Source: an uncultured Acidimicrobiales bacterium
GTDB lineage: Bacteria > Actinomycetota > Acidimicrobiia > Acidimicrobiales > SHLQ01
Direction of reading: 5' to 3'
NCBI GenBank assembly: GCA_937934655.1
Contig: CALGZB010000058.1
Span: 6,579-70,578 of the forward strand
Length of the DNA stretch: 64,000 bases
Below the pieces are notes generated by a model, which saw only the letters and a program-made list of their open reading frames with translations, had not been told where the DNA came from and did not search any database. Shown in pieces: positions 1-57,279 of the stretch (positions are counted from its first letter, which is position 1; every line of letters starts with the position of its first letter). A program made the translations under genes and the position numbers.

Positions 1-801
1 CCCTCTCAAGAGGTCGTGCACGGAACCGACGGCGCCTTTGTACTGGAGTACGACGTCAGTCGGCCGGTGGAGGGCTGGAACGCTCAGATCTCGCTTCTCA
101 CCGGCATCGCCGCCGCAAAGATCATGCTCGATGGCGGCCACGGCCTCCTGCGCACGCTGCCCAAGCCGTACGGCAAGACCGTGCGGTCCATCCGTGAGGC
201 AGGAAAGGCACTCGGAATCGATTGGCCTGCTGAAATGTCCTATGCCGACCGGGTCCGCGAGCTCGATCCCAACATCCCCCGAGAGGCGGCGCTTCTCACA
301 CAGTCGGCCCGGGCCCTACGAGGCGCCGGATATGTGGCCTTCAATGGTGAGCTGCCTGAGCTTCGCACCCACTCGGCCATCGCCTCCGAATACGCTCACG
401 TCACCGCTCCGCTCCGACGGGTAGCCGACCGTTACGCCAACGAGGCCATCCTCGCCCTCTGTGGCGAGTACGAGACCCCCGAATGGGCGCTCAAGGCGAT
501 GCCCGAGATTCCAAGTGCCATGGGCCGTGGCGTTTCCAGAGACCGCCGTCTTGAAAAGGCAATCGTCGACTTCGTTGAGGCCGTCGTGCTCGAGCCCCGG
601 ACCGGCGAAACCTTCGACGCTGTCGTGGTCGATGTCGACGAAGAAGACAACCGGTCGAAGATTCAACTGCGTGACCCCGCCGTGGTGGCCCGAATCGCCA
701 CCAGCGCCGCCGACCTAGGCGCCGAGGTCAAGGTACGCCTCGACAGCGCAATCCCCGACAGGCGCGAAATCACCTTCAGCCTCATTCCAGACAAAAAGTA
801 A
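1..801 (+). CDS. RNB-domain exoribonuclease (RNase II/R family), C-terminal part; 5' end lies outside the window
   Basis: The frame is open back to position 1. HSAIASEYAHVTAPLRRVADRYANE resembles the conserved RNB motif (H-x-T-S/A-P-I/L-R-R-Y/V-x-D). A strong hairpin follows directly after the stop. Confidence 0.75.
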   Translation, partial: PSQEVVHGTDGAFVLEYDVSRPVEGWNAQISLLTGIAAAKIMLDGGHGLLRTLPKPYGKTVRSIREAGKALGIDWPAEMSYADRVRELDPNIPREAALLTQSARALRGAGYVAFNGELPELRTHSAIASEYAHVTAPLRRVADRYANEAILALCGEYETPEWALKAMPEIPSAMGRGVSRDRRLEKAIVDFVEAVVLEPRTGETFDAVVVDVDEEDNRSKIQLRDPAVVARIATSAADLGAEVKVRLDSAIPDRREITFSLIPDKK

Positions 802-835
802 GAACGCTGGGGTCTGACCCCAGCGTTCTTACTTT
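794..835. terminator. Perfect 42-nt palindrome (about 20-bp arms), likely intrinsic terminator; copy A of a duplicated element
   Basis: aaaagtaagaacgctggggtc-t-gaccccagcgttcttacttt overlaps the stop of the RNB gene. The same 42 nt recur at 2847-2888. Confidence 0.7.
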
Positions 836-843
836 GGCGTGGC

Positions 844-1377
844 TTGTCACCCGGATGGCTGGGTGGCGGCGACATATGGTTGATGAGCGTGGGCAGAGAA
901 AGAATCGACTCGGCGTATGACCTGTATGCCCGTGAGCTTCTTTCGTTTGCGACCACCATTGCCGGACCTGCTGATGCGCAAGATGTGGTGTCCAACGCCC
1001 TGCTTCGATTAATCGGCAGTGATATATAGGCCGAGGCGGATAATCCCCGGGCGATTCTTCATCGAGCCGTGTACTTCGAGGGCCTCTCGTGGCTGCGTGC
1101 TGGTCAACGGCGCCGCACTCGCGAGACTCGGTGGTCGTTCCTCGAACTGCCCCACGAGGAAGCGATCGATTCGTTCGCCGATTCGGACCTGGCTGACACG
1201 CTGAATGTGTTGTCGGTGCAGCAACGTGCGGTCATCTATTTGACCTATTGGCGAGATCAATCCATTGCCGAGGTCAGCAAGACACTCGATGTTTCCGACG
1301 GCACGACCCGAAAACAGCTGGCTCGAGCCCGAGCAAAAATTCGGAAGGCCGTTTCAGAGAAGGCGATGTTCACATGA
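844..1377 (+). pseudogene. ECF-type sigma-70 family factor interrupted by an in-frame TAG (1027-1029)
   Basis: The two track ORFs (844-1029 and 1069-1377) are in the same frame. Read-through gives ...ALLRLIGSDI*AEADNPRAILHRAVYFEGLSWLRAGQRRRTRE..., joining a region-2-like N-terminus to a region-4 HTH (LSVQQRAVIYLTYWRDQSIAEVSKTLDVSDGTTRKQLARARAKIRK). The true start is probably ATG 883. Confidence 0.7.
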
Positions 1378-2837
1378 GCGATTACGATGACAACATTCGG
1401 GCTCTGCTGCAACGGGTAGACGAGGAGTCACCTGCCCCGTCGGAACTGAATCGGGAGATCGTCGAACCCGTAACTCTGCACTCGGAACGGAGGCGTTCGT
1501 GGGCGCCGATGGTTGCTGCCGCGGCTGTCGTTGTGATCGTCGGAACGTTCCTTCTGTTCGGAGGCGGCCAGGGAGAATCGGTCAAGGTAAGCGACGACAG
1601 CACCGAGGAGTCTGCCGACGTGACCGCCACGGGCACCATCGACTTTGGGCTTCCAGCTGTCTTCGATCGGCCGAGAACCGAGGCGGATGTGCTTCCGGAA
1701 CGAATCGCAGCATCATTCGACGAGCACACACCTGTTGGAAGGGACGGCACCCTCGAGTTCGATCTGGAGCGGTCGCGGCTCGGTCTGGAGTCAAAGGGAA
1801 TTACCGTGTGGATTGTTCCAGCCGTCGATGATCGAGCGGTCTGCGTGATGCATGAGAAGCCGACCGGTGAACCGGCATCACGAACGTGTCGAGTGTTTAC
1901 GTCGAAGAACGTTTTCGGTGCTCTCACTGCGTCATCTGCTGACTCAGCGCGCACCGTCATTGCCGGAGCCGTGAACTCCGACGAGATCGTGGACGTCGTC
2001 GACGCCGAGTTCCGCGACGGCGTGTTTCTTTCGGTCGGTCCGGGCGTTCCCTCGACCTCGCCGGTTGATCTTGCCGAGCCAACGTTCGTGTTCAGCGATG
2101 GAACAACCGGCACTGCCAGCGAGGCCCGCGAAGCATTCTTTGAGGTGTGTGGAGAGCTGTGGTCGCTGTTCTTCTCCGGAGACCAGTTGATCGAGAGCAG
2201 AGACCTCGAGCGCCTGCAGCCGTTGGCAGCTCTGACCCGAACTCCAGCCGTTCGTCGAACCGTCGATGCGCTTGCTGGCGTAGCAGCGGCTTCAGCGGAA
2301 CCGGTGCCGGTGGCGTCACCACGATGGTCTGAAGCCTGGCCGGAAGGAATCGCGATCTGTGCGCAACCCGGAATGTTCGGCTACGGGTGGTCCGTTGTTG
2401 GCGGTGAGCTTGGCACAGAACCAGGAGTCGACCTGGATCTCATTCCAAACGGCGGACAGATCCAGCTCATCGAACTTGGCCGGTTGTCAGAACAGGGCGG
2501 ATTGGCGGGCTCGCTCGCCACTGCAAGGCGGTCAGCCGACTGTCTCCTGGTCGACCTAGCGCCCGACTTCTTAGGCCGTCCAGAGAACACTGAAGTTGAA
2601 CTGGGCTGTGGAATCGGAATCTACGAAACGACGGTCGCTACCCGATTCGGCGACGAACGCGTGACAGGAGCATTGCTCCCAGACGACGCTTCCTACGTGC
2701 TGATTCGCTTCGATATGAGTGGCCACGCAGTGATGCGCCCGGTCGATGGCGTCGTGCTATTCACGGCTTCCGCCGACATGCAGCCAGTGACCTTCGACGT
2801 CTACCGAGCCGACGGCCAACAACTCACCATGAACTAG
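1374..2837 (+). CDS. Single-pass membrane protein coupled to the ECF sigma gene (putative anti-sigma/regulatory partner); large extracytoplasmic domain of unknown fold
   Basis: ATG 1374 overlaps the sigma stop (ATGA). The sequence begins MSDYDDNIRALLQRV... and has a TM helix WAPMVAAAAVVVIVGTFLLFGG. I see no zinc-finger anti-sigma motif, so the function is inferred from position only. The track ORF start at 1248 is an out-of-context extension. Confidence 0.55.
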   Translation: MSDYDDNIRALLQRVDEESPAPSELNREIVEPVTLHSERRRSWAPMVAAAAVVVIVGTFLLFGGGQGESVKVSDDSTEESADVTATGTIDFGLPAVFDRPRTEADVLPERIAASFDEHTPVGRDGTLEFDLERSRLGLESKGITVWIVPAVDDRAVCVMHEKPTGEPASRTCRVFTSKNVFGALTASSADSARTVIAGAVNSDEIVDVVDAEFRDGVFLSVGPGVPSTSPVDLAEPTFVFSDGTTGTASEAREAFFEVCGELWSLFFSGDQLIESRDLERLQPLAALTRTPAVRRTVDALAGVAAASAEPVPVASPRWSEAWPEGIAICAQPGMFGYGWSVVGGELGTEPGVDLDLIPNGGQIQLIELGRLSEQGGLAGSLATARRSADCLLVDLAPDFLGRPENTEVELGCGIGIYETTVATRFGDERVTGALLPDDASYVLIRFDMSGHAVMRPVDGVVLFTASADMQPVTFDVYRADGQQLTMN

Positions 2838-2846
2838 GTCGAATCC

Positions 2847-2889
2847 AAAAGTAAGAACGCTGGGGTCTGACCCCAGCGTTCTTACTTTT
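2847..2889. terminator. Copy B of the same palindrome; bidirectional terminator between convergent genes
   Basis: The sequence matches 794-835 and has one extra paired T. It lies between the stop at 2837 (+) and the stop at 2892 (-). Confidence 0.7.
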
Positions 2890-2891
2890 GG

Positions 2892-3686
2892 TTAGAGCTC
2901 GAGCGAGAGGGCGAGGGCTTCGACGACGCCGTCGTTCTCTACGTCGGCCACTACATGGTCTGATACAGCCAGCGCATGTTCGTCGGCGTTGCCCATGGCT
3001 ACCGGGTAACCGACTGCTTCCAGGGCCAACACATCGTTATGTCCATCGCCGATCATCATGGTCTGCGCCGCAGTGGTGCCGATCTCGGTCGCCAAACGTT
3101 CGATTGCGGTGCCCTTGTTGGCACCGGCTTTGGTGATCGACACAAAGGCCACGCCGGGCTGGATTGGTGATGTGGCCGACGTGGCTTGGGTACCCTCGGG
3201 TGCCGCCGCCAATGCATCGGCCGAGCGCTCGACCGGCACGATGAGCTGCACCCGCACAATCTCGCCCGTGAGATCCGTGAGCGGTCGACGCTCGAACGGC
3301 ACGCCCATGAGAGCCGCATGAGCGATAGCCGACTGGTGATCGGAATCGACGACGTATTGCCTCGTCTCGTAGAACTCGGCAACCCAATCGTTGCTGGCCG
3401 CAACGGCGGCACATCCAGCAACTTGGTCGTCGGTTAGCGAAAGGTTGCGCTCTTCGCCCGTGCCGGCGTGGAGCAGCGACGCCCCAGCGTGGAAGATGTG
3501 CCAACCGGTGGGATCGAGACGCACCGCATAGTCCCAGGACTTCCCAAACGCCCCGCGAGCGGTACAAAGCGCTAGGTGTTGACCTCGGCGAACCGCAGCG
3601 GCGGTTGCCGCCCAAACGGCGTCGGTGGGTTCACCCGACGGCCCTACAAGAGTCCCGTCGACATCGATACATACAAGTGGAAGCAC
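2892..3686 (-). CDS. HAD-IIB (Cof-type) phosphatase family hydrolase
   Basis: Motif I is CIDVDGTLVG (DxDxT). The C-terminal motif is MIGDGHNDVLALEAVGYPVAMGNA (GDxxND). Start is set at GTG 3686. The longer track ORF reaching 3893 would overlap the divergent oleA. Confidence 0.75.
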   Translation of the reverse strand: MLPLVCIDVDGTLVGPSGEPTDAVWAATAAAVRRGQHLALCTARGAFGKSWDYAVRLDPTGWHIFHAGASLLHAGTGEERNLSLTDDQVAGCAAVAASNDWVAEFYETRQYVVDSDHQSAIAHAALMGVPFERRPLTDLTGEIVRVQLIVPVERSADALAAAPEGTQATSATSPIQPGVAFVSITKAGANKGTAIERLATEIGTTAAQTMMIGDGHNDVLALEAVGYPVAMGNADEHALAVSDHVVADVENDGVVEALALSLEL

Positions 3687-3801
3687 CAGGGCAGCATAGA
3701 TGTAACCAACCGCCCCCAGTTGTGGTCTTAGCGGGGTGCCGGACAAGGCTTTTTGTCCTGCACGTGACAGACTCCATGATCTGTAATTCGGAAGGGGCCT
3801 G

Positions 3802-4818
3802 ATGGCCGGGAATGCAAGCTTCACATTTAGCGATATCGCTGTCGTCTCACTCGCGAACGTGCACGCCCCCGAAGTCATCACTTCCGACGACATCGATACT
3901 CGCCTCGCCGACTTCTACGAGCGGGTCGACGCCAAGCCTGGACTCCTTCAGAACCTTGCGGGAATCAACGAACGCCGCCAGTGGCCTGAAGGCTTCAGCT
4001 TCATGGACGCCGCCGCGGCAGCGGGCGAACTGGCACTCGAACGATCAGGGATCGACCGCGAGAGGGTCGGCCTTCTCGTCGACACCTCGGTGTGCCGTGA
4101 GCGTCTCGAACCATCGAGCGCCGTAACGGTTCACAACAGTCTCGGGCTTCCCTCGAGCTGCATGAACTACGACCTCGGCAACGCCTGCCTCGGATTCCTC
4201 AACGCGATGCATCTCGCCGGCGTACTCATCGAGAGCGGCCAGATCGATTACGCGCTCGTCGTCGATGGCGAAGGCACCCGCGAGATCCACGACAACACCA
4301 TCAACCGGCTCGATACCAGCGACACCATCGAAGACCTCTTCGAAAACTTCGCCTCGCTCACTCTGGGCTCTGGCTCGGCTGCAATGGTGCTGGGCCGTCA
4401 CTCGGAAAACCCCGGAAGCCACAAGATCGTTGGTGGGTTCTTCCGAGCCGCAACCGAATATCACGAACTCTGTGTTGGTTCGCTCGAAAAGATGCGCACC
4501 GATACTGCCGCTCTCCTCGATGCCGGCACCGGCGTGGTCAAGGTCTGCTGGGACGAAGCAGAGCGACCCGACTGGAACGACGCCAACGCGTTCATCCTGC
4601 ATCAAATTTCCGAAGTTCACACCCAAGCGATGATCGACCTGCTGGGCCTCGACGAAGAGCGCGTTGTGCGCACCTTCCCCGAGTTCGGCAACATCGGCCC
4701 AGCGGCGATTCCGTTCACGCTGGCCGAAATCGCCGACAAGCTCGTCGAGGGTGACAAAGTCCTCTGCATGGGTGCCGGCTCCGGCATCAATGCGTCGGTC
4801 ATCGAACTGATCTGGTGA
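3802..4818 (+). CDS. oleA: OleA, FabH-like thiolase for head-to-head Claisen condensation of acyl-CoAs
   Basis: Nucleophile context is DLGNACLGFLNAM. An OleA-type VCRERLEPSSAV segment is present, along with IDYALVVDGE, HQISEVH, FGNIGPAAIP and a C-terminal GAGSGINASVIELIW. The gene is followed by oleBC and oleD. Confidence 0.8.
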   Translation: MAGNASFTFSDIAVVSLANVHAPEVITSDDIDTRLADFYERVDAKPGLLQNLAGINERRQWPEGFSFMDAAAAAGELALERSGIDRERVGLLVDTSVCRERLEPSSAVTVHNSLGLPSSCMNYDLGNACLGFLNAMHLAGVLIESGQIDYALVVDGEGTREIHDNTINRLDTSDTIEDLFENFASLTLGSGSAAMVLGRHSENPGSHKIVGGFFRAATEYHELCVGSLEKMRTDTAALLDAGTGVVKVCWDEAERPDWNDANAFILHQISEVHTQAMIDLLGLDEERVVRTFPEFGNIGPAAIPFTLAEIADKLVEGDKVLCMGAGSGINASVIELIW

Positions 4819-7403
4819 CCAACGGTTCTCTTGCTCCGGCGGAGTTTCCTCCGGCGGGGCTCTTTGAGCTCCGGCGCGAATGGTCGCGGCTCGTTACGTG
4901 TCCCGATCACACCGGCGACCAACGCACCTGGCACGTACTCGACAGCGGCGCCTCCGACTCGACCCGCCTCACGGTGCTCTGCGTGCACGGCAATCCGTCG
5001 TGGTCCTACCTGTGGCGCTCCGTAGTTGCCGGAGCACCCGACGACGTTCGGGTCATTGCCGTCGATCAACTCGATATGGGGTTCTCGGAGCGTTCGGGCG
5101 TTCATCGCCGACTCGCCAATCGGGTCGATGACCTCTGCGCGCTTACCGATCACCTCGAGCTCACTGGCCGGGTGGTTACGCTCGCTCACGACTGGGGCGG
5201 CCCCGTTTCACTCGGTTGGGCGCTACGACACCTCGATCAACTCGACGGTGTGGTGCTCTCGAACACCTCGGTCTGCCAGCCGGAAGGATCGCCCGCACCA
5301 AGCCTGATCCGAGCGGCGCGTGCTCCCGGCCTCTTCCAGGCCACAACTATCAACACGGCCACGTTTGTCCACGGCGCAATCGAGCTATCTCGGCCCCGAC
5401 TCGCCGAGGGCGTGCGCGAAGGCATTCTCGCCCCGTATCGCACGGCCGAACGACGACAAGCCATCGGTGACTTCGTCGAAGATATCCCTCTCGACCCAAG
5501 CCACCCAACGTTCCGACCACTCGAAGCAATCGCCGATGGTCTCGCCGAACTGGGCGATATTCCCGCCCTGCTGCTCTGGGGGCCATCAGATCCGGTCTTC
5601 TCCGATCTGTACCTCCACGACCTCGAAACTCGGCTCCCTCATGCCGATGTGCATCGATTTGTCGGAGCCAGCCACTTTGTACCCGAAGATGCCGACGTGG
5701 CTGGAGCCTTCTTCGCCTGGCTGAACGAGCAGGCCCGACCACCCGGTGCTGCTCCCCAACAACGGGCACAACGACTCCCGCTCTGGCATGAACTCGATCG
5801 GCTTCATGCGAGCCAGAAACCGGCCGTCGTGGAGATGGTCGAGGGTTCCCCAACCTCAATTTCTTTCGCCGCACTGTCGCGACGGGTCGATGCTGTAGCC
5901 ACTGGGCTTGCCCGCCATGGAGTATCCAAGGGCGACCGAGTGGCTTTGATGATTCCTCCGGGCATCGAGCTCAATGTTGCGCTTTATGCCTGCTGGAAGA
6001 TCGGCGCCGTTATCGTCCTGGTCGATTCTGGCCTTGGTCCGAAAAACATGAGCCGAGCACTGAAATCGTCGGCACCGGCGTTTCTCATCGGCATCGACCG
6101 TGCCCTGCGCGGCGCCAAAGCGCTTCGCTGGCCTGGCCGACGCATCAGTGTCGATCCACTACACGCTGTCGAGCGGCGCCTCCTCAACGTCGAAACCTCA
6201 CTTGCCGAACTCCAAGAGTTGGGCCAAGAACCCGCCGACGATCGACCACCTACGCCAGGCGACGACGATGAAGCTGCTGTCGTGTTCACGTCGGGCTCGA
6301 CCGGTCCATCGAAGGGTGTGTTGTATCGCCATCATCAGGTGCAGGCCCAGCGCGACATGCTTCGCCAGCTCTACAACATCGACGCTGATGATCGCCTCGT
6401 GGCGGCCTTTGCGCCATTTGCGCTCTACGGGCCAGCGTTAGGAATCACCAGCGCAGTCCCCGACATGGACATCACCGAACCGGCGACCCTTACCGCTGCC
6501 GCCCTGGGTCAATCCGCTGCCGAGGTTGACGCAACTCTCGTGTTTGCCTCGCCGGCTGCGCTTACCAACGTGCTGGCTACGAAATCCGGTCTCACCCCGG
6601 CCCACCGGACGGCCTTCGATTCCGTGCGACTCTTTCTTTCGGCCGGCGCCCCTATCGGCGAAGCGCTCCTTCAACGCACTGTCGAGATCCTCCCAAACGC
6701 TGCAGCACACACGCCCTATGGCATGACCGAGGTCCTGCCCGTCGCCGATATTTCGGCCCAGCAACTCGCAGAGCGCCGAACCAACCCTCTCGGAGGCGGC
6801 GTCTGCGTCGGTGGAGTCGTACCCGAAACCTGGGTACGGATTTACCCGCTCGACCCCAACGGCGAGCCCTCGCCCGACCCAACCACCGATGCTGGAGTTC
6901 TTGGCGAAGTGGTCGTTCACGCTCCGCACACCAAGGAGCGGTACGACCGACTCTGGTACACCAACCATTTGTCCTCCCAACCCGCTGGCTGGCACCGCAG
7001 CGGCGATATTGGTTTGATCGACAACGACGGGCAACTCTGGATCGCCGGTCGACTCAAGCACGTCATCACCACCGCTGCTGGGCCGCTCGGACCGGTATCG
7101 CTCGAGCTCGCAGCACAAACGGTCGCTGGCGTGTCGCTGGTGGCCGCGGTCGGGGTGGGTCCGGTTGGCGCGCAAATCGTTGTGATCGTTATCCAGCCTG
7201 ACGATCCTCCACGTCGATGGGGCGAAGCATCGTCGCTTCTTCGCAGCCAGATCCGCACGGCAATCGCCGAGCAATGCTCCCCCGATATCGATATTGCCGC
7301 CGTGCTGCTCACGCCGGATATCCCGGTGGATCAACGACACAACTCGAAGATCGACCGGCGGTTCATGGCACAGCAGGCAGCCATTCATCTGGCTGGAAAC
7401 TAG
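4815..7403 (+). CDS. oleBC: OleBC fusion: N-terminal alpha/beta-hydrolase (beta-lactone decarboxylase, haloalkane-dehalogenase-like) plus C-terminal AMP-dependent beta-lactone synthetase
   Basis: N-terminal half: VHGNPSWSYLWRS and LAHDWGGPVS (Asp nucleophile elbow). C-terminal half: AMP-binding motifs VVFTSGSTGPSKGVLYRH, YGMTE and WHRSGDIG. The GTG start overlaps the oleA stop. Confidence 0.8.
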   Translation: MTNGSLAPAEFPPAGLFELRREWSRLVTCPDHTGDQRTWHVLDSGASDSTRLTVLCVHGNPSWSYLWRSVVAGAPDDVRVIAVDQLDMGFSERSGVHRRLANRVDDLCALTDHLELTGRVVTLAHDWGGPVSLGWALRHLDQLDGVVLSNTSVCQPEGSPAPSLIRAARAPGLFQATTINTATFVHGAIELSRPRLAEGVREGILAPYRTAERRQAIGDFVEDIPLDPSHPTFRPLEAIADGLAELGDIPALLLWGPSDPVFSDLYLHDLETRLPHADVHRFVGASHFVPEDADVAGAFFAWLNEQARPPGAAPQQRAQRLPLWHELDRLHASQKPAVVEMVEGSPTSISFAALSRRVDAVATGLARHGVSKGDRVALMIPPGIELNVALYACWKIGAVIVLVDSGLGPKNMSRALKSSAPAFLIGIDRALRGAKALRWPGRRISVDPLHAVERRLLNVETSLAELQELGQEPADDRPPTPGDDDEAAVVFTSGSTGPSKGVLYRHHQVQAQRDMLRQLYNIDADDRLVAAFAPFALYGPALGITSAVPDMDITEPATLTAAALGQSAAEVDATLVFASPAALTNVLATKSGLTPAHRTAFDSVRLFLSAGAPIGEALLQRTVEILPNAAAHTPYGMTEVLPVADISAQQLAERRTNPLGGGVCVGGVVPETWVRIYPLDPNGEPSPDPTTDAGVLGEVVVHAPHTKERYDRLWYTNHLSSQPAGWHRSGDIGLIDNDGQLWIAGRLKHVITTAAGPLGPVSLELAAQTVAGVSLVAAVGVGPVGAQIVVIVIQPDDPPRRWGEASSLLRSQIRTAIAEQCSPDIDIAAVLLTPDIPVDQRHNSKIDRRFMAQQAAIHLAGN

Positions 7404-14244: not shown

Positions 14245-14341
14245 ACAAACCATCCGGGGAGCCCAAGAGCAGTTGGGCTGAGAGGACGAGCACGCTCGTC
14301 GACCCGCACACCTGAACTGGGTAATGCCAGCGGAGGAAGCC
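14245..14341 (+). promoter_or_regulatory. TPP (THI-box) riboswitch
   Basis: The core elements appear in order: GGGGAGCC...GGGCTGAGAG...ACCC...ACCTGAACTGGGTAATGCCAGCGGAGGAAG. It lies immediately 5' of a thiamine-type ABC binding protein, and the SD GGAGGAAG lies in the 3' part of the element. Confidence 0.85.
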
Positions 14342-15376
14342 ATGACCATCCTTTCAACCCTCTCTCGACCTTTTGCGATCCTCGTGATCGCCCTTGCGGT
14401 CTTCGCAAGTGCGTGCGGATCAGATGAGGCGTCGAGCATCACGCTGATCACTCATGATTCGTTCGCGATTTCGCCCGAAACGCTCGAAGCGTTCACCGCC
14501 GAAACCGGCATCGTCGTGGAACAACTGGCGTCGGGCGACGCTGGCCAGATGGTGAGCGAAGCCATCCTCACCGCGGGGAACCCCATTGGTGATGTCATGT
14601 TCGGCATCGACAACACATTCCTCCAACGGGGCCTCGACGCCGGTATCTTCACCTCCTACGAGTCGCCGAACCTCGTGAACGTTCCTGACGAGTTTCAACT
14701 CGACCCGACGCATCAGGTCACCCCGGTCGACTACGGCGACGTCTGTGCCAACTACTGGATCTCGGAGCTCGACGGCCCGGCTCCCACCAGCCTCGACGAC
14801 CTGATCGACCCGGCGTATAGCGGCCAATTCGTCACGCCGAACCCCGAAACCTCTTCCCCGGGCCTAGCGTTCCTTCTCGCAACCATCGCCAAGTACGGCG
14901 ACGGCTGGGAGGACTACTGGACATCGCTACGCACAAACGACGTGGCCATTACCGCCGGCTGGGACGACGCGTACTACGGCGAGTTCATCGCCGGCGGCGG
15001 CACACGCCCGATCGTGACGTCCTATGCGTCGAGCCCACCCGCCGAGGTGCTGTTTGCCGATCCGCCCGTCGATACGGCGCCAACTGGCGTGCTCCTCGAC
15101 AGCTGCTTCCGCCAAATCGAGTTTGCCGGGGTACTCGACGGAAGCGAGAACACCGACGAGGCGCAGCAACTTATCGACTTTATGCTCACCCCGACCTTCC
15201 AAGAAGACGTCCCGCTCAACATGTTTGTCTTCCCGGTTCATGAGGGAGCGCAACTCCCGCCCGAATTCGTCGAGCACGCCCAAATCGCCGAGAACCCACT
15301 CACTATCGACCCGGCCACCATCGAAGCCAACCGCAACGCATGGACCGAGCGGTGGGTAGAACTCGTCCTGCGTTGA
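14342..15376 (+). CDS. thiB: Thiamine ABC transporter substrate-binding protein (ThiB/TbpA-like)
   Basis: Signal/lipobox-like N-terminus MTILSTLSRPFAILVIALAVFASACGS. Periplasmic-binding-protein length and layout. Preceded by the TPP riboswitch. Confidence 0.75.
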   Translation: MTILSTLSRPFAILVIALAVFASACGSDEASSITLITHDSFAISPETLEAFTAETGIVVEQLASGDAGQMVSEAILTAGNPIGDVMFGIDNTFLQRGLDAGIFTSYESPNLVNVPDEFQLDPTHQVTPVDYGDVCANYWISELDGPAPTSLDDLIDPAYSGQFVTPNPETSSPGLAFLLATIAKYGDGWEDYWTSLRTNDVAITAGWDDAYYGEFIAGGGTRPIVTSYASSPPAEVLFADPPVDTAPTGVLLDSCFRQIEFAGVLDGSENTDEAQQLIDFMLTPTFQEDVPLNMFVFPVHEGAQLPPEFVEHAQIAENPLTIDPATIEANRNAWTERWVELVLR

Positions 15377-47715: not shown

Positions 47716-50700
47716 TCAGGCGACGCCGTGTTCTTCATCGGGCTGGCCGACGTCGGTGTCGGCGGCGATGACTCGCCGGTTCTGGTCGTGTGCGGCGGAC
47801 TGCTTCTGGCCAGAGAAATCGTGATCGTTTGCGGCATGAGGGCGCCCAAGCAGGAAGCCTTGGAACCAGGAACAACCGAGTTCGCTTAGCAAGTCGAGTT
47901 GACGTCCGGTTGCCACCCCAACCGCGGTAACCGGCAGACCGCGTTCGTGTGCCCGAGCCAGAATTCCGGCGACCTGGGCCGTATCGGCCGCATGGCGCCC
48001 GACGCCTTCGACGAGTCGGCGGTTGATCTTCAGTTCGGTGATTCCCTCGAAGTGGCTACGGAAAAGTCGACCGGTGACGTCATCGACGACCAAGCGAACC
48101 CCCAAGCTCCCCAAGTTTTCCAGCGCTGCGAGGAGCGCATCGTCGGCCGCAAGGAGAACAGGCTCGGCGAGTTCGATGCCGAGTTGGGCTGGGTCCACCT
48201 CGTAGAGACGCAGGAGCGCATCGAGTCGCGAAGCAAACCCGCGCTCGACCGCCTGGGCGGCCGAGATATTGACATCGACCTGTACAGAGACACCGTGCTT
48301 GCGTTCGGTAGAAGAAAGGAACTCGAGCGCTCGGTCGAGCACCCGGTGTCCGGCCGCTGATGACATTCCGAGATCGTCGGCGAGCTCGATAACTTCGCTC
48401 GCACCAACCACCCCGCGACTGGGGCTGTGCCAACGGACCAATGCTTCAAAGCGGTAGCTCAGGTCAGGAGATATGGCCGCCTTGTCGGTGCGATCTGCAT
48501 CGTCATCGGCAGGCTCTTTGGCGGCGACATGGATCCTTGCGAGATCGCCCGGAAGGACTGCTTGATACGCATTCTCAAGCTGGTTTCCGAGTTGATCGCT
48601 CGAGAGAGCTGCTCGGAACTCCTCTTCCAGCGACCGTCGCTGCGAGATTTCGAGCTGCCCGTTCTCACCGACCGATGCCGTGCGGACACGGCCGCGAGTG
48701 CGCGCCCGCTGCACCGCAAGATCGGCGTTGTCGAAGAGTTCATCGGCGGAGAGCGAGCGGTCGCCGGTATGTGCGACGCCCAAACTGAACTGGACGTTGA
48801 GGTACCGCTGAGACTCACCCGAATCGATGATGAATGTTGGAGACAGCTCATCGACGAGGCGCGACGTGAGGTGCTCGAGGTCGATGTCGTCGCCGAGTCG
48901 TTGCGAAAGGACACCGAATGTTTGTTGATCGATGCGGGCAGCCGATTCGTCGTGACGGCACGCCAGAGCAAGGCGGTCGGCGATGGCAACCGCAAGGGTG
49001 TCGTGTTCGACGTCGGTCATCGAAAAACCTTCGTCGGCGTTCGAAATAACGTCGGCGATGCTGTCGATCTCGACGAGAGCGACAGCAACCTTCGCCCGGT
49101 TTCCCACGTTTCTTGCGATGGCTCGGACGGCGCGGCGTTTCAGTCCGGCACCGCTGCTCAACAACGTCAGTGGATCGACAGCGAGCTGATCCTCATGCTC
49201 CCAATCCGGCACCGACTCGAGCGGGGTCAAGATGACCGATGCCAACGGCTCACCCGCATCGAGGTCGGCCTCGTTGTGAAACTGGGCGTGGAAGGGAACC
49301 GCAGGACCGTCGGTGCTTCGAAGCCAAAGCTGGCCTGACCATAAGCCGGTCTCGAGTACCGCAGGCCAAACATCAGACCGAACAAGTACCGCCGACTTGG
49401 GTGTAAAGAATTCGTGCAGCTCGGTCGAAACTTCAGCGCCGGTAAGCGCCGCGAGGTCGGCAGAGAGGTACTTGATTCCGACTCCTCGTTCGACCACGAG
49501 GACCGACCCCTCTGTGCCATCAGCGACGCGATCGGGAAGGTCGCCGCTCTCGACAAGGCGGGTGATGTCTTCGACGACGGCGACATCGCCGCTGCGTTCA
49601 CCGTCTGCGCCGATGATGGGACTCATTCGGCTTCGGAGGAACCGAACCGATCCATCGCCAGCATCGAGCTCGATGGTCTCACTAACACCGTCGTCTCCGA
49701 CCCGGACAAGGCTCGACCGCTCCGCTGCGAATTCGGTGGCGTCAACGTTGCCGAGCATCTCAAGCAATAGGTCGTTGATGAACGAGACATTGCCGTCGCG
49801 ATCGCGGGTGAATGTGCCAAGCCGTTCGGGCTGAGGAACGTCAGCTACCTGGCGAGCGGAGTCATCGGTGACGGCGGTGAGCTGGAGAGCGATTTGGGCG
49901 ACGGTTGGATCATCGAGGTAGTTCCGACCAATGACTTCAATCCACTGCCAGGTGGGAGCGGACGGCTCTGAACCGTCGTCGGCCGCCAACGCAACGCGAA
50001 GAAAGCCATGAATCTGGCCCTCGAGCCCGGGTTGACGTAACCGTTGCTCGGCGTATGAGCGGTCCGACGGGTGCACCGCTGCGAGCAGTTCCATACCGAC
50101 GGCGGTTGTTGCGGGCCGGCCAACCAGCGCGGGAAAGCTCGCGCTGGCGTAGGTCACGTTGTATGAGTCGTCGAGGAAGACCACGGCCGAGTCGGCCTGG
50201 GCGACCTCGGTTGGTTGCACCTGTCCGACGTTGGAGTCACGGGCTCGAACGATGAGGCCGTTGGGCCGACGGATCACGGCGGTATCGAAGGTTCGTTCCG
50301 TGCCTTCGCTGTTTACGAACCGGAGCGGGCCGAACGAAAGAAACTCGCCGTCAGCCTTGGCTTCCATGGAGTCAAGCGCTTCGGTGAATTCGACCTCATC
50401 GTCGCGGTGAAGAAGCTCCCAAAGGTGGAGGCCCGCCAAACTGTCGGGGTGGCAGCCAAGCTTGCCTTGCACCGGACCGGTGACAACATCGATGATGCTC
50501 GAGCCGGGCCGAAGCAGGATACCGATGTCGGTGGCTTCGGGTGGGTCGTAGGAGGCGCTGACAGGCAGAGGTGCGGGGCGCTGGTCGTCGGTAGCGTCCT
50601 GGTCAAACGGACCGAACGACTGGACGCCTGTCGTTGCGTGGGACGGATCAGAACTGGTCGCCGAAGAGCCGTTCGAGGAAGAGCCGTTCGAGAGAGAGCC

Positions 50701-51141
50701 AGCCGTGGAAGAGAGAACGAGGTCGCTGTCGACCGGTGTCGGAAGCAGCGCAGGATTCGGCCCCGTCGCCGCCACATCGGTCAATTCGACGTTCACATGT
50801 AAGCCGGGGGTCTCGACGTCGTCGAAGGCGTTGGCCGCCGAAACCGTCGCCGGAATCCACGAATCGTCGGACTGTCCGGAAACAAGTCGAATCTCAAGCG
50901 ATGCGTCTGCTTCAGGCTGCGACCGAAGGAATTTGAGCATGGCGCCGAAAGCCAACCGGTCGCTTGGGTGCAATAAGCCCATGCCAGAAGCCTGCGCTGC
51001 CTCGATATCCCAGCCGAGTAACTGCTCGGCTTCGGAATCGATGTGTTGCACCGTCGCCTCGGCAGAAAACACCATACGGAAGCTTGCGTTCTGGCCCATA
51101 GGACTTCGTCGGCATTCTGACCCGATCGCTGAAGGGAACAA
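47716..51141 (-). CDS. Large multi-PAS signalling protein with degenerate GGDEF-like and partly degenerate EAL domains
   Basis: The GGDEF position reads DQQTFG. The EAL domain keeps FEALVRWHSP and VNIS but has DDVTG (for DDFGTG) and AVGVAT (for EGVE). Start is uncertain (51141, 51099 or 51075). Confidence 0.7.
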   Translation of the reverse strand: MFPSAIGSECRRSPMGQNASFRMVFSAEATVQHIDSEAEQLLGWDIEAAQASGMGLLHPSDRLAFGAMLKFLRSQPEADASLEIRLVSGQSDDSWIPATVSAANAFDDVETPGLHVNVELTDVAATGPNPALLPTPVDSDLVLSSTAGSLSNGSSSNGSSATSSDPSHATTGVQSFGPFDQDATDDQRPAPLPVSASYDPPEATDIGILLRPGSSIIDVVTGPVQGKLGCHPDSLAGLHLWELLHRDDEVEFTEALDSMEAKADGEFLSFGPLRFVNSEGTERTFDTAVIRRPNGLIVRARDSNVGQVQPTEVAQADSAVVFLDDSYNVTYASASFPALVGRPATTAVGMELLAAVHPSDRSYAEQRLRQPGLEGQIHGFLRVALAADDGSEPSAPTWQWIEVIGRNYLDDPTVAQIALQLTAVTDDSARQVADVPQPERLGTFTRDRDGNVSFINDLLLEMLGNVDATEFAAERSSLVRVGDDGVSETIELDAGDGSVRFLRSRMSPIIGADGERSGDVAVVEDITRLVESGDLPDRVADGTEGSVLVVERGVGIKYLSADLAALTGAEVSTELHEFFTPKSAVLVRSDVWPAVLETGLWSGQLWLRSTDGPAVPFHAQFHNEADLDAGEPLASVILTPLESVPDWEHEDQLAVDPLTLLSSGAGLKRRAVRAIARNVGNRAKVAVALVEIDSIADVISNADEGFSMTDVEHDTLAVAIADRLALACRHDESAARIDQQTFGVLSQRLGDDIDLEHLTSRLVDELSPTFIIDSGESQRYLNVQFSLGVAHTGDRSLSADELFDNADLAVQRARTRGRVRTASVGENGQLEISQRRSLEEEFRAALSSDQLGNQLENAYQAVLPGDLARIHVAAKEPADDDADRTDKAAISPDLSYRFEALVRWHSPSRGVVGASEVIELADDLGMSSAAGHRVLDRALEFLSSTERKHGVSVQVDVNISAAQAVERGFASRLDALLRLYEVDPAQLGIELAEPVLLAADDALLAALENLGSLGVRLVVDDVTGRLFRSHFEGITELKINRRLVEGVGRHAADTAQVAGILARAHERGLPVTAVGVATGRQLDLLSELGCSWFQGFLLGRPHAANDHDFSGQKQSAAHDQNRRVIAADTDVGQPDEEHGVA

Positions 51142-51151
51142 CCAATGAAAG

Positions 51152-52426
51152 TTGGGGTATTGGCGTCCTTTCCTCGATGAAGCTCATGATCGGCCCGCGA
51201 GTGCCGATCGTCTCTCTATGGGTTCAGGAACCGCGCCTCACGGGGACAATCAACGTCTCGGTGACAATGGCTCGAACAACAACGAAAGCGACGCACGCAC
51301 AACGTGGCCACTTGCCGCTGGGCTTGTTGTCGTCGCTGGGCTGGTCGGCGTCCTTCTGCTGACCCAAGGAACCCGCGGCCGGGTGCAGACCATCGGCGAA
51401 GGCCTCCTCACCGCAGCACTTGTCGCTGGACCGTTCCTTTGGGCCGAGTGGATGGTGAATCGGCACGAGAAGAAGCCGGCGAAACCCGAGTCCGATCGAC
51501 GCATGGCGTTGGTAGGCCGCGATCTTCGCCACCAAGAACTCGATGGGCGCGACCTTGGCGGACGCGTTTTTGTTGGCTGCAATCTTTCTCATAGTCGGCT
51601 GAGCGAATCCGGTCTGGTTGAAGCGGTGTTTGACCGTGCCGATCTTCGCTATGTCGTGGCTCGCGGCGCCGACATGACCCGCGCTTCGCTCCGTCGTTCG
51701 AACGCCGCACATATCGATCTGCGGTCAGCGCAACTCGTTGGTGCACAACTCAACGATGCCGACCTTCGATGTGCCGACCTTCGCCAAGCCCTTCTCTGCG
51801 ACGCTGACCTTCGCGGCGCCGATCTACGCGGTGCGGACCTTCGCGGCGCCGATCTCGACGGTGCACAACTTCGCTCGGCGCTCTATAGCTCGACCACATT
51901 GTGGCAGGGCGACATGAACCTCGAGGCCGAGCGCGACCGTCACGGCATGGTCGACCAAGCCGACGATTCGCTTCCTTTCGAAGAGATCTCAAAGAGCCCT
52001 GAAACAGCCACCAAACGCACGATCGATCTTCGCCACGGCCCGCGAGCCATGGTCGCCGCCGCTGTCATCGTGGCGGCAATCGGAGCCATCGCTGTTCCGC
52101 GTCTCTCCAACACCAACGTTGCCCAAACTCAGGTATCGGGTGTTCGCCTCGACCAACCGTTCCTCAAAGTCGACGGCGAATCCGACCAGGTCCGAGTTCT
52201 CATCGAGGTCAACGACGAAATGGTGCAACAGTTCAAGACTCGAGACCTGCCGCTCACCGTCTCGCTCGACAACCTCGAACAAAACGACAACGTGATCGTC
52301 ACCATCGAAAACCTTGCCGCCGACGGCGACGTCAGCTGTGAGCTTGGACTCGGAACCGACACATGGGTGAAAGAGACCGCCGAAGGCGAAGGCTCATCAA
52401 CCATCTGCGGTGCTCGAGTCCGTTAG
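51152..52426 (+). CDS. Membrane-anchored pentapeptide-repeat protein
   Basis: TM helix WPLAAGLVVVAGLVGVLLL is followed by a long run of A(D/N)Lxx pentapeptides (ADLRCADLRQALLCDADLRGADLRGADLRGADLDGAQL). Start may be ATG 51218. Confidence 0.7.
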   Translation: MGYWRPFLDEAHDRPASADRLSMGSGTAPHGDNQRLGDNGSNNNESDARTTWPLAAGLVVVAGLVGVLLLTQGTRGRVQTIGEGLLTAALVAGPFLWAEWMVNRHEKKPAKPESDRRMALVGRDLRHQELDGRDLGGRVFVGCNLSHSRLSESGLVEAVFDRADLRYVVARGADMTRASLRRSNAAHIDLRSAQLVGAQLNDADLRCADLRQALLCDADLRGADLRGADLRGADLDGAQLRSALYSSTTLWQGDMNLEAERDRHGMVDQADDSLPFEEISKSPETATKRTIDLRHGPRAMVAAAVIVAAIGAIAVPRLSNTNVAQTQVSGVRLDQPFLKVDGESDQVRVLIEVNDEMVQQFKTRDLPLTVSLDNLEQNDNVIVTIENLAADGDVSCELGLGTDTWVKETAEGEGSSTICGARVR

Positions 52427-54417: not shown

Positions 54418-56130
54418 TTAGGCCGCCCGAGGGGCCTGACGGGCGGCATCTTGTTCGGCCTGAGCGGTAAGCCCGCGGCGGAACTGATCGGCGGTAACGG
54501 TCGGGGCCAAGTGGTCGCCGGCAGCAAAGCCGACTCCAAGAGACTCCAGTTCGACCAGGTGTTCTGGATGGTCGACTCCGTCGGCCAAGATCGTGAGCTT
54601 CGCCGTGCGGGCGAGGTCGAGCAGAGCAACCGCTGCCGGCCGCGAGAGTGGGTTGCGGCCGAAGTCGCTGATCCGACGTTCGGGGATCATGGCGAGCCCC
54701 ATATCGAGCAGACCAATGCGGTCATCTTGCAGGGCGAGTAGGCCGATGTCATCGACCACCATCCGAACACCGATTTGACGCAAGGCTCGAAGCCCAGCCG
54801 GATCGTTGTCGATCGCTGACTTTCCGATCGTCAACTGAAGCATCGATGCCGGAAGACCCCGTTTGATCAGAACGGCCTGCAGCCACTGCGGAAAGCTCGG
54901 CTCGCTGAGCGTTGCGATCGTGGGGCGAAACAGGATGAGGAAGTTCTCTGGCAGCACGTGGTTGTAGGCAAACACGTGAACATGCGACAGCATTTCGCCG
55001 ATCGCTGCCTGGTCGAACGCAACACCCTGAGGGGTTTCGTCGAGCATGGAATGGAATTGGCTCGGCTCGAGGATCCCACCGGTCGTGTTCACCCAGTGTG
55101 GCTGGGCAATCGTGCCCACAACCCGACCGTTACTGGTCTGGAAGATCGGCTGAAAGCGCATATCGAGGCGACCATCACCGAGCACATCGATGACATCGTC
55201 GTCGGCTGAGATCTTTGCCTGATCTCGGAGGCGGCGATTGCGTTCTTTGTCTTGATACATCGCAATATCGACCTCGCGGAGGAGGAACTCCGAGTCGACA
55301 CCGTGGCCGATTTGGGCCGTTCCGATACTGAAGAGCAGTTTGTGACGCCGGCCAAGGATCGTGGCTTCACGACCCATGCTCGCCCGCAGACGGGCAACAA
55401 CTTCGGCGACTTCGGCTGGGGTAACCCCATGCAACAGAACAAGGAATTCGTCGCCACCCATTCGAGCAACAACATCGGTCGCTTTGACCGCACTGCGCAG
55501 ACGTTCGGTGACGACCTTGAGTGCTTCGTCGCCGGCCTGGTGACCAAACGTATCGTTCAATTCCTTGAACTTGTCGAGGTCGATACTCAGCAGCGCGGAG
55601 TGGTCTGCGGCCTCTTTGTCGGCGAGAGTTTTGTTGAGCGACATCATCAGCGATGCGCGGTTTGCGGCACCGGTGAGTTCATCGAATGTTGCTTGACGAC
55701 GAAGTGCATCATCGCTCGTCTGGCGACTGGCCAGGTCGACGGTAATCGCCTGAGCAAGCGCATCGATGCTGTTTGCTACGTCGGCGATTTCATCGTCGCC
55801 CGCATCGCCAATCGGCGGAAGAACTTGACCGTCGGCTAAGGCATCTGCCGCACGCACAATCGAGCGAAGTCGACCGGAAAGGGGGCGAACGAGAAACGCC
55901 CACACCACGATCGCCGTCACGCCTACAACAGCCGAGACCGAAAGGAAGGCAAGGCGAAGGAAGCTGAGCCGAGAGGTGAGGTCCTCTAGATCAGCGAATC
56001 GGACCAGGTCGGGCAATTGCGAGCCCACGAGGAGGGAACCAAGTACGCCGATCGCGACCAACCCGCCGATGGCGAGGGTAAGTCGTTTCGCAAGCACAGG
56101 TCCCTGCTTGGTGGCTTGTTCCTTGGTCAC
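54418..56130 (-). CDS. TM-HAMP-GGDEF protein with degenerate EAL-like C-terminal domain
   Basis: Two TM helices, then RMGGDEFLVLL (intact GGDEF). The EAL position reads AQPHW, DDIG replaces DDFGTG, and ADGVD replaces EGVE. Confidence 0.8.
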   Translation of the reverse strand: MTKEQATKQGPVLAKRLTLAIGGLVAIGVLGSLLVGSQLPDLVRFADLEDLTSRLSFLRLAFLSVSAVVGVTAIVVWAFLVRPLSGRLRSIVRAADALADGQVLPPIGDAGDDEIADVANSIDALAQAITVDLASRQTSDDALRRQATFDELTGAANRASLMMSLNKTLADKEAADHSALLSIDLDKFKELNDTFGHQAGDEALKVVTERLRSAVKATDVVARMGGDEFLVLLHGVTPAEVAEVVARLRASMGREATILGRRHKLLFSIGTAQIGHGVDSEFLLREVDIAMYQDKERNRRLRDQAKISADDDVIDVLGDGRLDMRFQPIFQTSNGRVVGTIAQPHWVNTTGGILEPSQFHSMLDETPQGVAFDQAAIGEMLSHVHVFAYNHVLPENFLILFRPTIATLSEPSFPQWLQAVLIKRGLPASMLQLTIGKSAIDNDPAGLRALRQIGVRMVVDDIGLLALQDDRIGLLDMGLAMIPERRISDFGRNPLSRPAAVALLDLARTAKLTILADGVDHPEHLVELESLGVGFAAGDHLAPTVTADQFRRGLTAQAEQDAARQAPRAA

Positions 56131-56219: not shown

Positions 56220-57239
56220 ATGTCCGACTCCCAGAATGCTCAATCGATGTGTGCCCTCATCGCCGGCGGCCCGTTCATCGATGCCAATCAGCTTCCTGAG
56301 GCGCTTGGTTGGGAACTCAAGCCCCAAGGCCTCTGCCAGGACGACGTTTGTGTACCGGTAGCCGATGTTGCCGCACTGAAAGAGGACTCGGGAGATCGTC
56401 TCGATGTCCTTGCGGTAGCGGCAACGCTCGATCGACCCGCCGTGCATGACGATGTTGCCAACATCGTGGCAGTCGGCGCCCCGCGTGCGTCACGTCGACA
56501 AGCCATTAACGATCTCGTCGCTCCGGACTTCGCCTTGCCGGACCTGGCCGGCTCGTTGGTTGCTCTCAACGACTTCCGCGGCAAGAAGAAGCTCCTCGTC
56601 GCATTCTCGAGTTGGTGAGGATGCCTCCTTGACCTGCCCGGGTGGCAGGAACTTCACGACGAACTCGCCGACCAGAACTTCACGGTCGTCGCCGTCGCCA
56701 TCGACGAAAACGTCGAGGCGATTGCAAAGGCCGCTGAGGGCATCACCTATCCGATCTTGATCGATGCCGAGCATCTCGTTACCGAGCTGTACGCGATCTC
56801 GAATGTCCCGACCGTGATCTGGATCGATGAGAACAACCAAATCATCCAGCCCAACTGGACTGCCTTCGGAACCGATACCTTCGTCGAATTCACCGGTGTC
56901 GAGTCGGGCCCGCAAAAGGACCTCATTCGTCGATGGGTTACCAACGGCGACGTGATGATGACCGCCGACGCTGCCACCGACGCGGTCCATGACCTGAGTC
57001 CCGAAGAGGAACAGGCCCGCCTCTACTTCCGGATCGGCGCCCATCTGCGTCGTGCCGGCGACGAACCTGGCGCCGAGCGAAACTTTGCCATGGCGGTCGA
57101 GCTCGCCCCCTATGACTGGACCGTGCGCCGAGCCGCCATGCCGTTGCGGGGCGCAGATCCCTTCGGCGAGGAGTTCTTCACCATGTATGGCGAATGGCAG
57201 GAAGCTGGTTCCCCGTATCACGGGGTCCCCTCCCGTTAG
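56220..57239 (+). CDS. TlpA/ResA-like thioredoxin-fold oxidoreductase with in-frame TGA (56616-56618) at the redox-motif position: candidate selenoprotein, or a recently disrupted gene
   Basis: Track ORFs 56220-56618 and 56757-57239 share one frame, and no other stop lies between them. Read-through gives APDFALPDLAGSLVALNDFRGKKKLLVAFSSW-[TGA]-GCLLDLPGWQELHDELADQNFTVVAVAIDEN...NVPTVIWIDENNQI, i.e. W-U-G-C where this family normally has W-C-x-x-C. Confidence 0.55.
56633..56649 (+). promoter_or_regulatory. Short GC hairpin 15 nt 3' of the in-frame TGA (possible bacterial SECIS apical stem-loop)
   Basis: CCUGCC-CGGGU-GGCAGG forms a 6-bp stem with a 5-nt G/U-containing loop. Confidence 0.3.
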
Positions 57240-57279
57240 CCAGCTCGTGCGGTACCCGATGTCCAACTAGCTTCAGGCG

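Follow-up and report, generated by a model that had tools for sequence, protein, structure and literature searches.

A probable selenocysteine codon in a UGC-containing TlpA/Prx-like gene of an uncultured Acidimicrobiales bacterium

Results and discussion

A reading frame divided by a single TGA codon

The stretch of DNA analysed here, referred to as the window, is 64 kb long and comes from an uncultured Acidimicrobiales bacterium. On its plus strand, positions 56220-57239 translate as one frame of 339 codons whose sole internal stop is TGA 56616-56618. In the list of open reading frames (ORFs) this frame appears as two pieces, an ORF at 56220-56618 (132 aa, ending in KKKLLVAFSSW before the TGA) and a second ORF, in the same frame, at 56757-57239. 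The translation bears out the initial annotation, according to which only this TGA splits the two. The features of the locus are as follows.

56220..57239, plus strand: predicted complete selenoprotein coding sequence, with an ATG start, selenocysteine (Sec) at codon 133 and a TAG stop at 57237-57239
56334..56351, plus strand: conserved Cys pair of the N-terminal domain, C39-x4-C44 (G-L-C-Q-D-D-V-C-V-P), recognized by family conservation
56490..57266, minus strand: antisense ORF of 258 aa over the post-UGA part, from the mechanical ORF list
56508..56864, plus strand: thioredoxin-fold (TlpA/ResA/redoxin-like) domain, residues ~97-215, with the cis-Pro loop N195-V196-P197, from Pfam, PDB and Foldseek matches
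56616..56618, plus strand: UGA predicted to be read as Sec, residue 133, the N-terminal redox residue of W-U-G-C, from the Cys column of the homologues
56622..56624, plus strand: Cys135 (TGC), probable resolving partner of Sec133 in U-G-C, invariant in 26 homologues
56633..56649, plus strand: SECIS-type hairpin with a 6-bp stem and the 5-nt loop CGGGU, from the bSECIS constraints and covariation
56883..57209, plus strand: C-terminal all-helical domain, residues ~222-330, from the AlphaFold helices 229-328

The U-G-C motif is encoded by TGA-GGA-TGC (56616-56624). The identical TGA is present in ENA assembly ERZ6864290 and in Logan assemblies ERR9287619 and ERR9287623, where the surrounding sequence is 99.9-100% identical to that of the window. 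Because these three further independent assemblies carry the same TGA, a base-call error, which the initial annotation had named as a point to check, is excluded. ERZ6864290 contains contigs of two related species and is therefore a metagenome assembly, not a single bin. TGA also serves as the normal stop codon in 3 of the 11 neighbouring genes supported by Pfam, including the MFS gene directly downstream, so the genetic code is not reassigned.

The antisense ORF is most likely not a gene. In ERZ6864290 (contig L124, 10271-11002), an antisense gene call of 243 aa with no Pfam match takes the place of the last two thirds of the predicted selenoprotein. A scan of the window for other in-frame TGA codons flanked by long ORFs of high GC3 returned many spurious candidates, as its GC content is 61%, and none besides 56616 was convincing. 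The neighbourhood comprises genes of GGDEF-EAL, MFS, luciferase-like, TetR and acyl-CoA-ligase types, which give no functional clue.

Domain architecture of the predicted product

The read-through product matches AhpC-TSA (pfam00578, 57.7 bits) and Redoxin (55.2 bits) in Pfam, both over the cut-off. Sequence matches to ResA and TlpA in the PDB span query residues 97-212 (phmmer E-values of 1e-10 to 1e-13), and Foldseek matched the central domain to ResA, DsbE and related proteins, with a TM-score of ~0.8 over the target. The AlphaFold model has a pLDDT of 86.7 and a pTM of 0.84, and its helices at residues 229-328 show pLDDT values of 77-94 in 10-residue blocks. No solved-structure counterpart of this C-terminal helical domain was found among the PDB matches, which cover ~130-145 of the 339 residues.

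Conservation extends over all three domains. Of 194 family members, 192 have C39 and 191 have C44, irrespective of phylum and of whether the form is Sec or Cys, and R304 and P297 are kept in at least 95% of the 194. The positions conserved in the family are thus C39, C44, W132-U/C133-G134-C135, DLPGWQ, N195-V196-P197 and R304. Residues 1-50 contain no hydrophobic stretch by inspection. Because neither a signal peptide nor a membrane anchor is visible, the predicted product probably works in the cytoplasm.

The TGA occupies a cysteine column in homologues

A protein search returned 780 homologues. The best 120 of these 780, from Acidimicrobiales and Acidimicrobiia MAGs, are 52-60% identical to the query and all full-length, with 336-375 aa (mostly 345-351 aa). 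Full-length homologues (345-351 aa) can be aligned with the 339-residue read-through product end to end. All 26 full-length homologues that were aligned (53-60% identity) have Cys in the column of the TGA, within SW-C-G-C-(R)Y-DLPGWQ, and none has an ordinary non-Cys sense codon there. Cys135 is invariant in 26 homologues from the protein search, made without use of any DNA pattern; its presence in all 241 sequences collected by DNA pattern follows from the pattern itself, of which it is the required TGY.

The initial annotation had placed the TGA at the first Cys of a W-C-x-x-C motif. Alignment with solved ResA structures does put it on the first Cys of that motif, with a one-residue deletion before the second Cys; the motif of the present family is therefore W-C/U-G-C, not W-C-x-x-C.

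The DNA pattern W-TGA-G-C-x-x-D-L-P-G-W-Q was then scanned against GTDB representatives, one genome per species. As a result, at least 120 species-representative genomes were found to carry it, against an estimated ~0.004 expected by chance. The TGA-form taxa among the matches listed include Acidimicrobiales, Ilumatobacter, Microthrixaceae, many Acidobacteriota, Chloroflexota, Alpha- and Deltaproteobacteria, Planctomycetia and others, and nearly all listed matches that are not ended by a contig edge continue for ~200-240 family-like in-frame codons beyond the TGA.

Among the matches listed, the ten closest relatives of the window protein are all TGA forms. The nearest are L089 (75.8% aa identity) and L062 (69%), followed by seven Ilumatobacter-type sequences (58-63%), and the first Cys form appears only at rank 11, with 59% aa identity. 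When 194 members were placed in a neighbour-joining tree, the window sequence fell inside a clade of 18 tips, all of them TGA forms. Compared with L089, the window gene has a pairwise dN/dS of 0.21 before the TGA and 0.09 after it; compared with L062, the value is 0.14 on both sides, all four values being approximate since dS exceeds 1 and is saturated. The substitution pattern indicates that the post-TGA part has clearly been translated for a long time. The end-to-end alignment and these ratios uphold the initial view that the translation is family-like on both sides of the TGA. The all-TGA clade, the ten nearest relatives and the purifying selection downstream agree with its further view that the TGA is not a recent nonsense mutation.

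A short hairpin downstream of the TGA is constrained in TGA forms

Downstream of the TGA, CCTGCC (56633-56638) pairs with GGCAGG (56644-56649) around the loop CGGGT (56639-56643), giving a hairpin with a free energy of -10.4 kcal/mol. It starts at the 15th nucleotide after the TGA, and the distance from UGA to loop is 20 nt. The hairpin is encoded by GA[C CUG CC]C GGG U[GG CAG G]AA (stem halves in brackets), the codons of D-L-P-G-W-Q-E. The bSECIS model, as quoted in PMC13188914, calls for a loop of 3-9 nt, a stem of at least 4 bp, a G in the first two loop positions, a distance of 16-37 nt from the UGA and an MFE not above -7.5 kcal/mol. All four constraints of the model in that quoted form hold for the window hairpin, with its 5-nt loop, 6-bp stem, 20-nt distance and -10.4 kcal/mol, and its loop has G at position 2, followed by another G. 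It thus resembles the fdhF-type SECIS of E. coli and the bSECIS consensus (bSECISearch) in being an in-coding stem-loop just after the UGA, with 20-nt spacing, a loop G at position 2 followed by G and an MFE below -7.5 kcal/mol. It differs from them in being very short, with only a 6-bp stem and no Rfam match, and in being wholly superimposed on an invariant peptide motif.

The location and spacing of the hairpin are as the initial annotation gave them. Its mere presence, which was offered there as support, is nevertheless weak evidence, because it lies over an invariant peptide and uses two codons, CUG and CAG, that are common anyway; through codon usage, the stem is present in about half of the Cys forms as well. 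The 65 nt after the UGA showed no extra single-sequence stability relative to shuffles (z-score -0.06). No SECIS or tRNA-Sec match was obtained with Rfam over the whole window at the gathering threshold, nor a SECIS match when 56560-56720 was scanned by E-value; Rfam is reported to cover bacterial SECIS elements poorly (2026 preprint). The significance of the hairpin comes only from comparison with other sequences, namely from the pattern at synonymous sites.

As a control for this comparison, 120 Cys forms were collected from metagenomes with the same DNA pattern, TGY replacing TGA, and TGA and Cys forms were compared at the positions that the pattern leaves free. The third base of the Leu codon is G in 119 of 119 TGA forms versus 60 of 102 Cys forms (Fisher 2.6e-17). 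The Pro codon is CCA in 71 of 119 TGA forms versus 2 of 102 Cys forms, and CCC is followed by GGG in 39 of 39 TGA forms versus 7 of 41 Cys forms.

Base pairing was also maintained by covariation. The pair between the first base of the Leu codon and the third base of the Gln codon (L1:Q3) is CG in 100 TGA forms, UA in 16, UG in 2 and mismatched in 1, and that between the third base of the Asp codon and the base after the Gln codon (D3:+33) is CG in 62, UA in 45, UG in 6 and mismatched in 6. When 117 TGA forms were aligned without gaps, pairing held in 99.0% of cells and 61 cells, at two pairs, were compensatory, counts that ignore shared ancestry and include four of six pairs dictated in whole or in part by the peptide and the search pattern. 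Neither the 99.0% pairing nor the 61 compensatory cells was attained in any of 500 shuffles, and slid registers all scored far lower. Moreover, RNAalifold predicted the 6-bp hairpin from the TGA forms and gave no such prediction from the Cys forms, and it found no extended lower stem within the 60-nt alignment. Cys forms thus show neither the compensatory changes nor the synonymous-site constraint of the TGA forms.

Selenocysteine machinery in related genomes

No match to E. coli SelA, SelB or SelD was found by tblastn within the 64-kb window, which also contains no tRNA and hence no tRNA-Sec. On contig L083 of an Acidimicrobiia MAG, a minus-strand family gene with its TGA at 213-215 is separated by ~170 bp from a tRNA-Sec (731-826), which is followed by selD (848-1873), selB and selA (3825-5093). 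SelA is widespread among Acidimicrobiales MAGs, and selA or selA-selB loci are present in several Acidimicrobiales contigs from other samples. In addition, the Sec machinery is reported to be universal in Actinomarinales, another order of Acidimicrobiia (2026 preprint). One selA-selB contig from the same ENA project (P0210, in ERZ6864144) could not be assigned to the window organism by composition, its GC content being 64.9% versus 61.0% and the tetranucleotide correlation between the two being 0.948, under the within-window range.

Relationship to known families

The best NCBIfam match of the window protein is NF041054 (WAxxUGC_long), with an E-value of 1.4e-61 and 208.8 bits against a curated cut-off of 300. 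This model is the catalogued ResA-like WAxxUGC family that the initial annotation had mentioned. The relationship proposed there is supported by the E-value; the score falls short of the cut-off and the motif lacks W-A, being F-S-S-W-U-G-C in the window, while W-A-S-W-U-G-C is found in Acidobacteria-type members. The window protein shares with this equivalog its length, the N-terminal CX4C region, UGC, DLPGWQ and the C-terminal domain. All Acidimicrobiia forms tested, whether Sec or Cys, score 189-230 with the model (L089, 194; L003, 189), and three forms of Acidobacteria and deltaproteobacteria type score 296-329 (L009, 321; L036, 329). By its sequence, the window protein is best placed in the broader UGC selenoprotein family, outside NF041054 as currently delimited. 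The split gene calls in public records arise because the Acidimicrobiia branch scores under the NF041054 cut-off.

The window gene belongs to a selenoprotein family that has been catalogued since 2008. In the part of the GOS survey that concerns it (PMC2398784), the family is listed as "Prx-like (UGC-containing)", with 46 Sec and 855 Cys sequences, and the corresponding section of a 2026 review names the same family "UGC-containing TlpA family". As far as those entries describe it, the family has a thioredoxin-fold/AhpC-TSA-type domain, a U-G-C motif, a bacterial SECIS just downstream and abundant Cys homologues, as here. The entries give motif and domain only and provide no defining difference from the window protein; the passages on the family contain no description of the three-domain architecture, the Acidimicrobiales branch or a SECIS within DLPGWQ. 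A full-text literature search for "WAxxUGC" found no paper.

Two better-known groups were considered and rejected. With ResA, TlpA and CcmG (DsbE), the window protein shares the central ~120-residue fold, a Trp before the nucleophile and the cis-Pro loop. It differs from them in having U-G-C instead of C-x-x-C, two extra domains and, by inspection, no visible membrane anchor or signal peptide. With no CxxC, low scores with the ResA/TlpA models of NCBIfam (60.6 versus a cut-off of 170 for NF002854; 39.1 versus 230 for NF047696) and no visible anchor, membership among these cytochrome-maturation proteins was discarded, and they were kept as fold analogues. A peroxiredoxin of the AhpC/TSA type was rejected as well: the motif P-x-x-x-T/S-x-x-C is absent, since L-V-A-F-S-S-W-U has Ser at position -3 and Leu, not Pro, at position -7 relative to the Sec. 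In most of the UGC family, position -3 to the Sec/Cys is Ala.

We consider it evenly balanced whether the F-[SA]-S-W-U-G-C proteins of Acidimicrobiales and Ilumatobacter constitute a distinct three-domain UGC branch (CX4C, UGC thioredoxin fold, helical) that is systematically unannotated. Gene callers render this gene and its relatives from Acidimicrobiales and Ilumatobacter as a 132-residue fragment, in some cases with a spurious antisense ORF as well, and a lower NF041054 cut-off or an added sister model would correct many genomes. The family also illustrates clearly how a SECIS hairpin can lie on top of an invariant peptide motif, and its matched Sec and Cys forms expose constraint at synonymous sites acting at the RNA level. 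Two points are modestly new: the gap in annotation for the Acidimicrobiales branch, and a synonymous constraint, specific to Sec forms, on a peptide-embedded SECIS. Selenocysteine decoding as currently understood is unaffected by either.

Proposed decoding of the UGA and alternative explanations

Taken on comparative grounds, UGA 56616-56618 very probably encodes Sec, and 56220-57239 would then be one gene for a 339-residue UGC-containing TlpA/Prx-like selenoprotein. The UGA would be decoded by Sec-tRNA(Sec) delivered by SelB, which may be recruited by the small hairpin (6-bp stem, loop C-GGG-U) that lies 20 nt further downstream. This putative SECIS would be made up of the codons for the invariant D-L-P-G-W-Q, with which the predicted active-site helix begins. 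In the modelled fold, Sec133-Gly-Cys135 takes the place of the Cys-x-x-Cys of ResA and TlpA. The most likely activity of the product would be that of a thiol/selenol-disulfide oxidoreductase in which U133 and C135 form a selenenylsulfide, possibly with a relay from these two residues to the C39/C44 pair.

Three other explanations of the TGA were weighed against Sec insertion. If the gene were a pseudogene, a nonsense mutation would have turned the TGC or TGT of a Cys-type TlpA-like gene into TGA, and either the 132-residue fragment or nothing would be made. Such a change takes a single third base, gene callers do treat the locus as a truncated ORF, and selA, selB, selD and tRNA-Sec are all missing from the 64-kb window. 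However, the TGA is common to 18 species-level lineages that have diverged to ~55-60% aa identity with no other disruption, and the close relatives show neither frameshifts or further stops nor a downstream dN/dS near 1. The disabling mutations that the initial annotation thought might mark decay in related lineages are thus absent across the 18-tip TGA clade. With a downstream dN/dS of 0.09-0.14, a constraint at least as strong as that upstream, and with synonymous sites of the hairpin constrained in TGA forms only, we regard loss of function as very improbable. Even less weight can be given to a sequencing or assembly error at 56616-56618 that hides a true TGC or TGT. The source is a metagenome assembly and one wrong base would be sufficient, but the error would have to recur in the three assemblies from different runs, and TGA stands at the same codon in at least 120 other genomes; this explanation is extremely improbable.

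The third alternative accepts the full-length product, which is clearly under selection, and has the UGA read through without selenium, either by a near-cognate Trp- or Cys-tRNA or, at low selenium, by Cys insertion via the Sec pathway, so that residue 133 would be Trp or Cys. It draws on the fact that the identity of residue 133 is deduced from comparison. Against it, the column is strictly Cys in the non-TGA homologues, the classic Sec/Cys signature; the hairpin fits the bSECIS model for SelB-type decoding, in agreement with the SECIS check foreseen in the initial annotation; one family member adjoins tRNA-Sec, selD, selB and selA (L083); and neighbouring genes use TGA as a normal stop. Selenium-free read-through is accordingly judged improbable, if slightly less so than a pseudogene, and decoding as Sec is preferred.

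Under decoding as Sec, exchange between the two forms may be simple at the DNA level: one third-base change (TGY to TGA) together with a few synonymous changes could switch a gene between Cys and Sec. Since about half of the Cys forms already have the stem, such switching could take few steps, which would explain why at least five Sec/Cys switches are required across the whole 194-member neighbour-joining tree.

Loop codons and Sec/Cys switching in the selenoprotein family

Among the matches listed for the TGA-form family loci L001-L120, the hairpin loop codons for Pro and Gly are coupled: Pro CCC is followed by Gly GGG in 39 of 39 cases and Pro CCG by Gly GGC in 8 of 8, while Pro CCA tolerates any Gly codon. 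This coupling is absent from the Cys forms, where CCC-GGG occurs in only 7 of 41. The stem model does not account for the coupling, which in the window falls in loop 56639-56643 and could reflect either a SelB loop requirement or common ancestry.

A neighbour-joining tree of 194 family members, drawn from L001-L246 and the window, requires at least five Sec/Cys switches, and TGA and Cys forms are intermixed in its Acidimicrobiales part. The N-terminal domain holds a CX4C pair (C39/C44, window 56334-56351) that is kept in ~99% of the 194 members, Sec and Cys forms alike, and is a possible second redox or metal site. Across assemblies of the window's strain, the selenoprotein gene differs at just two positions, 56976 and 56981, both nonsynonymous (T253A and D254E) and located where the C-terminal domain has a variable linker.

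Contig L124 of the public assembly ERZ6864290 has a gene called on the strand opposite the selenoprotein gene, over the stretch that follows the UGA:
L124 10271-11002 (window ORF 56490-57266, minus strand): 243 aa, no Pfam match
This antisense call looks like an annotation artefact, arising because the UGA was treated as a stop.

Sec machinery loci in other contigs

An Acidimicrobiia MAG contig (L083, JBFWQW010000124.1) carries a compact Sec island at 1-5100:
Minus strand: UGC-family gene, incomplete, extending past the contig end
731-826: tRNA-Sec
848-1873: selD
Listed between selD and selA: selB
3825-5093: selA

Contig c_000001185950 (L263, ENA ERZ6864144), which shares its ENA project with the window, has the arrangement FxsA-selA-selB, and this synteny recurs in other Acidimicrobiales contigs, L249, L253 and L257.

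Other features of the window

14245-14357, plus strand: TPP riboswitch RF00059 (59 bits vs gathering score 54.3)
47716-51141, minus strand: large GGDEF-EAL signalling protein
51152-52426: pentapeptide-repeat protein
54418-56130, minus strand: large GGDEF-EAL signalling protein

Both GGDEF-EAL genes are found in the 9 kb upstream of the selenoprotein gene, one encoding PAS domains and the other HAMP, with the pentapeptide-repeat gene between them. The riboswitch overlaps the start of ORF 14324-15376 and presumably controls a thiamine-related gene.
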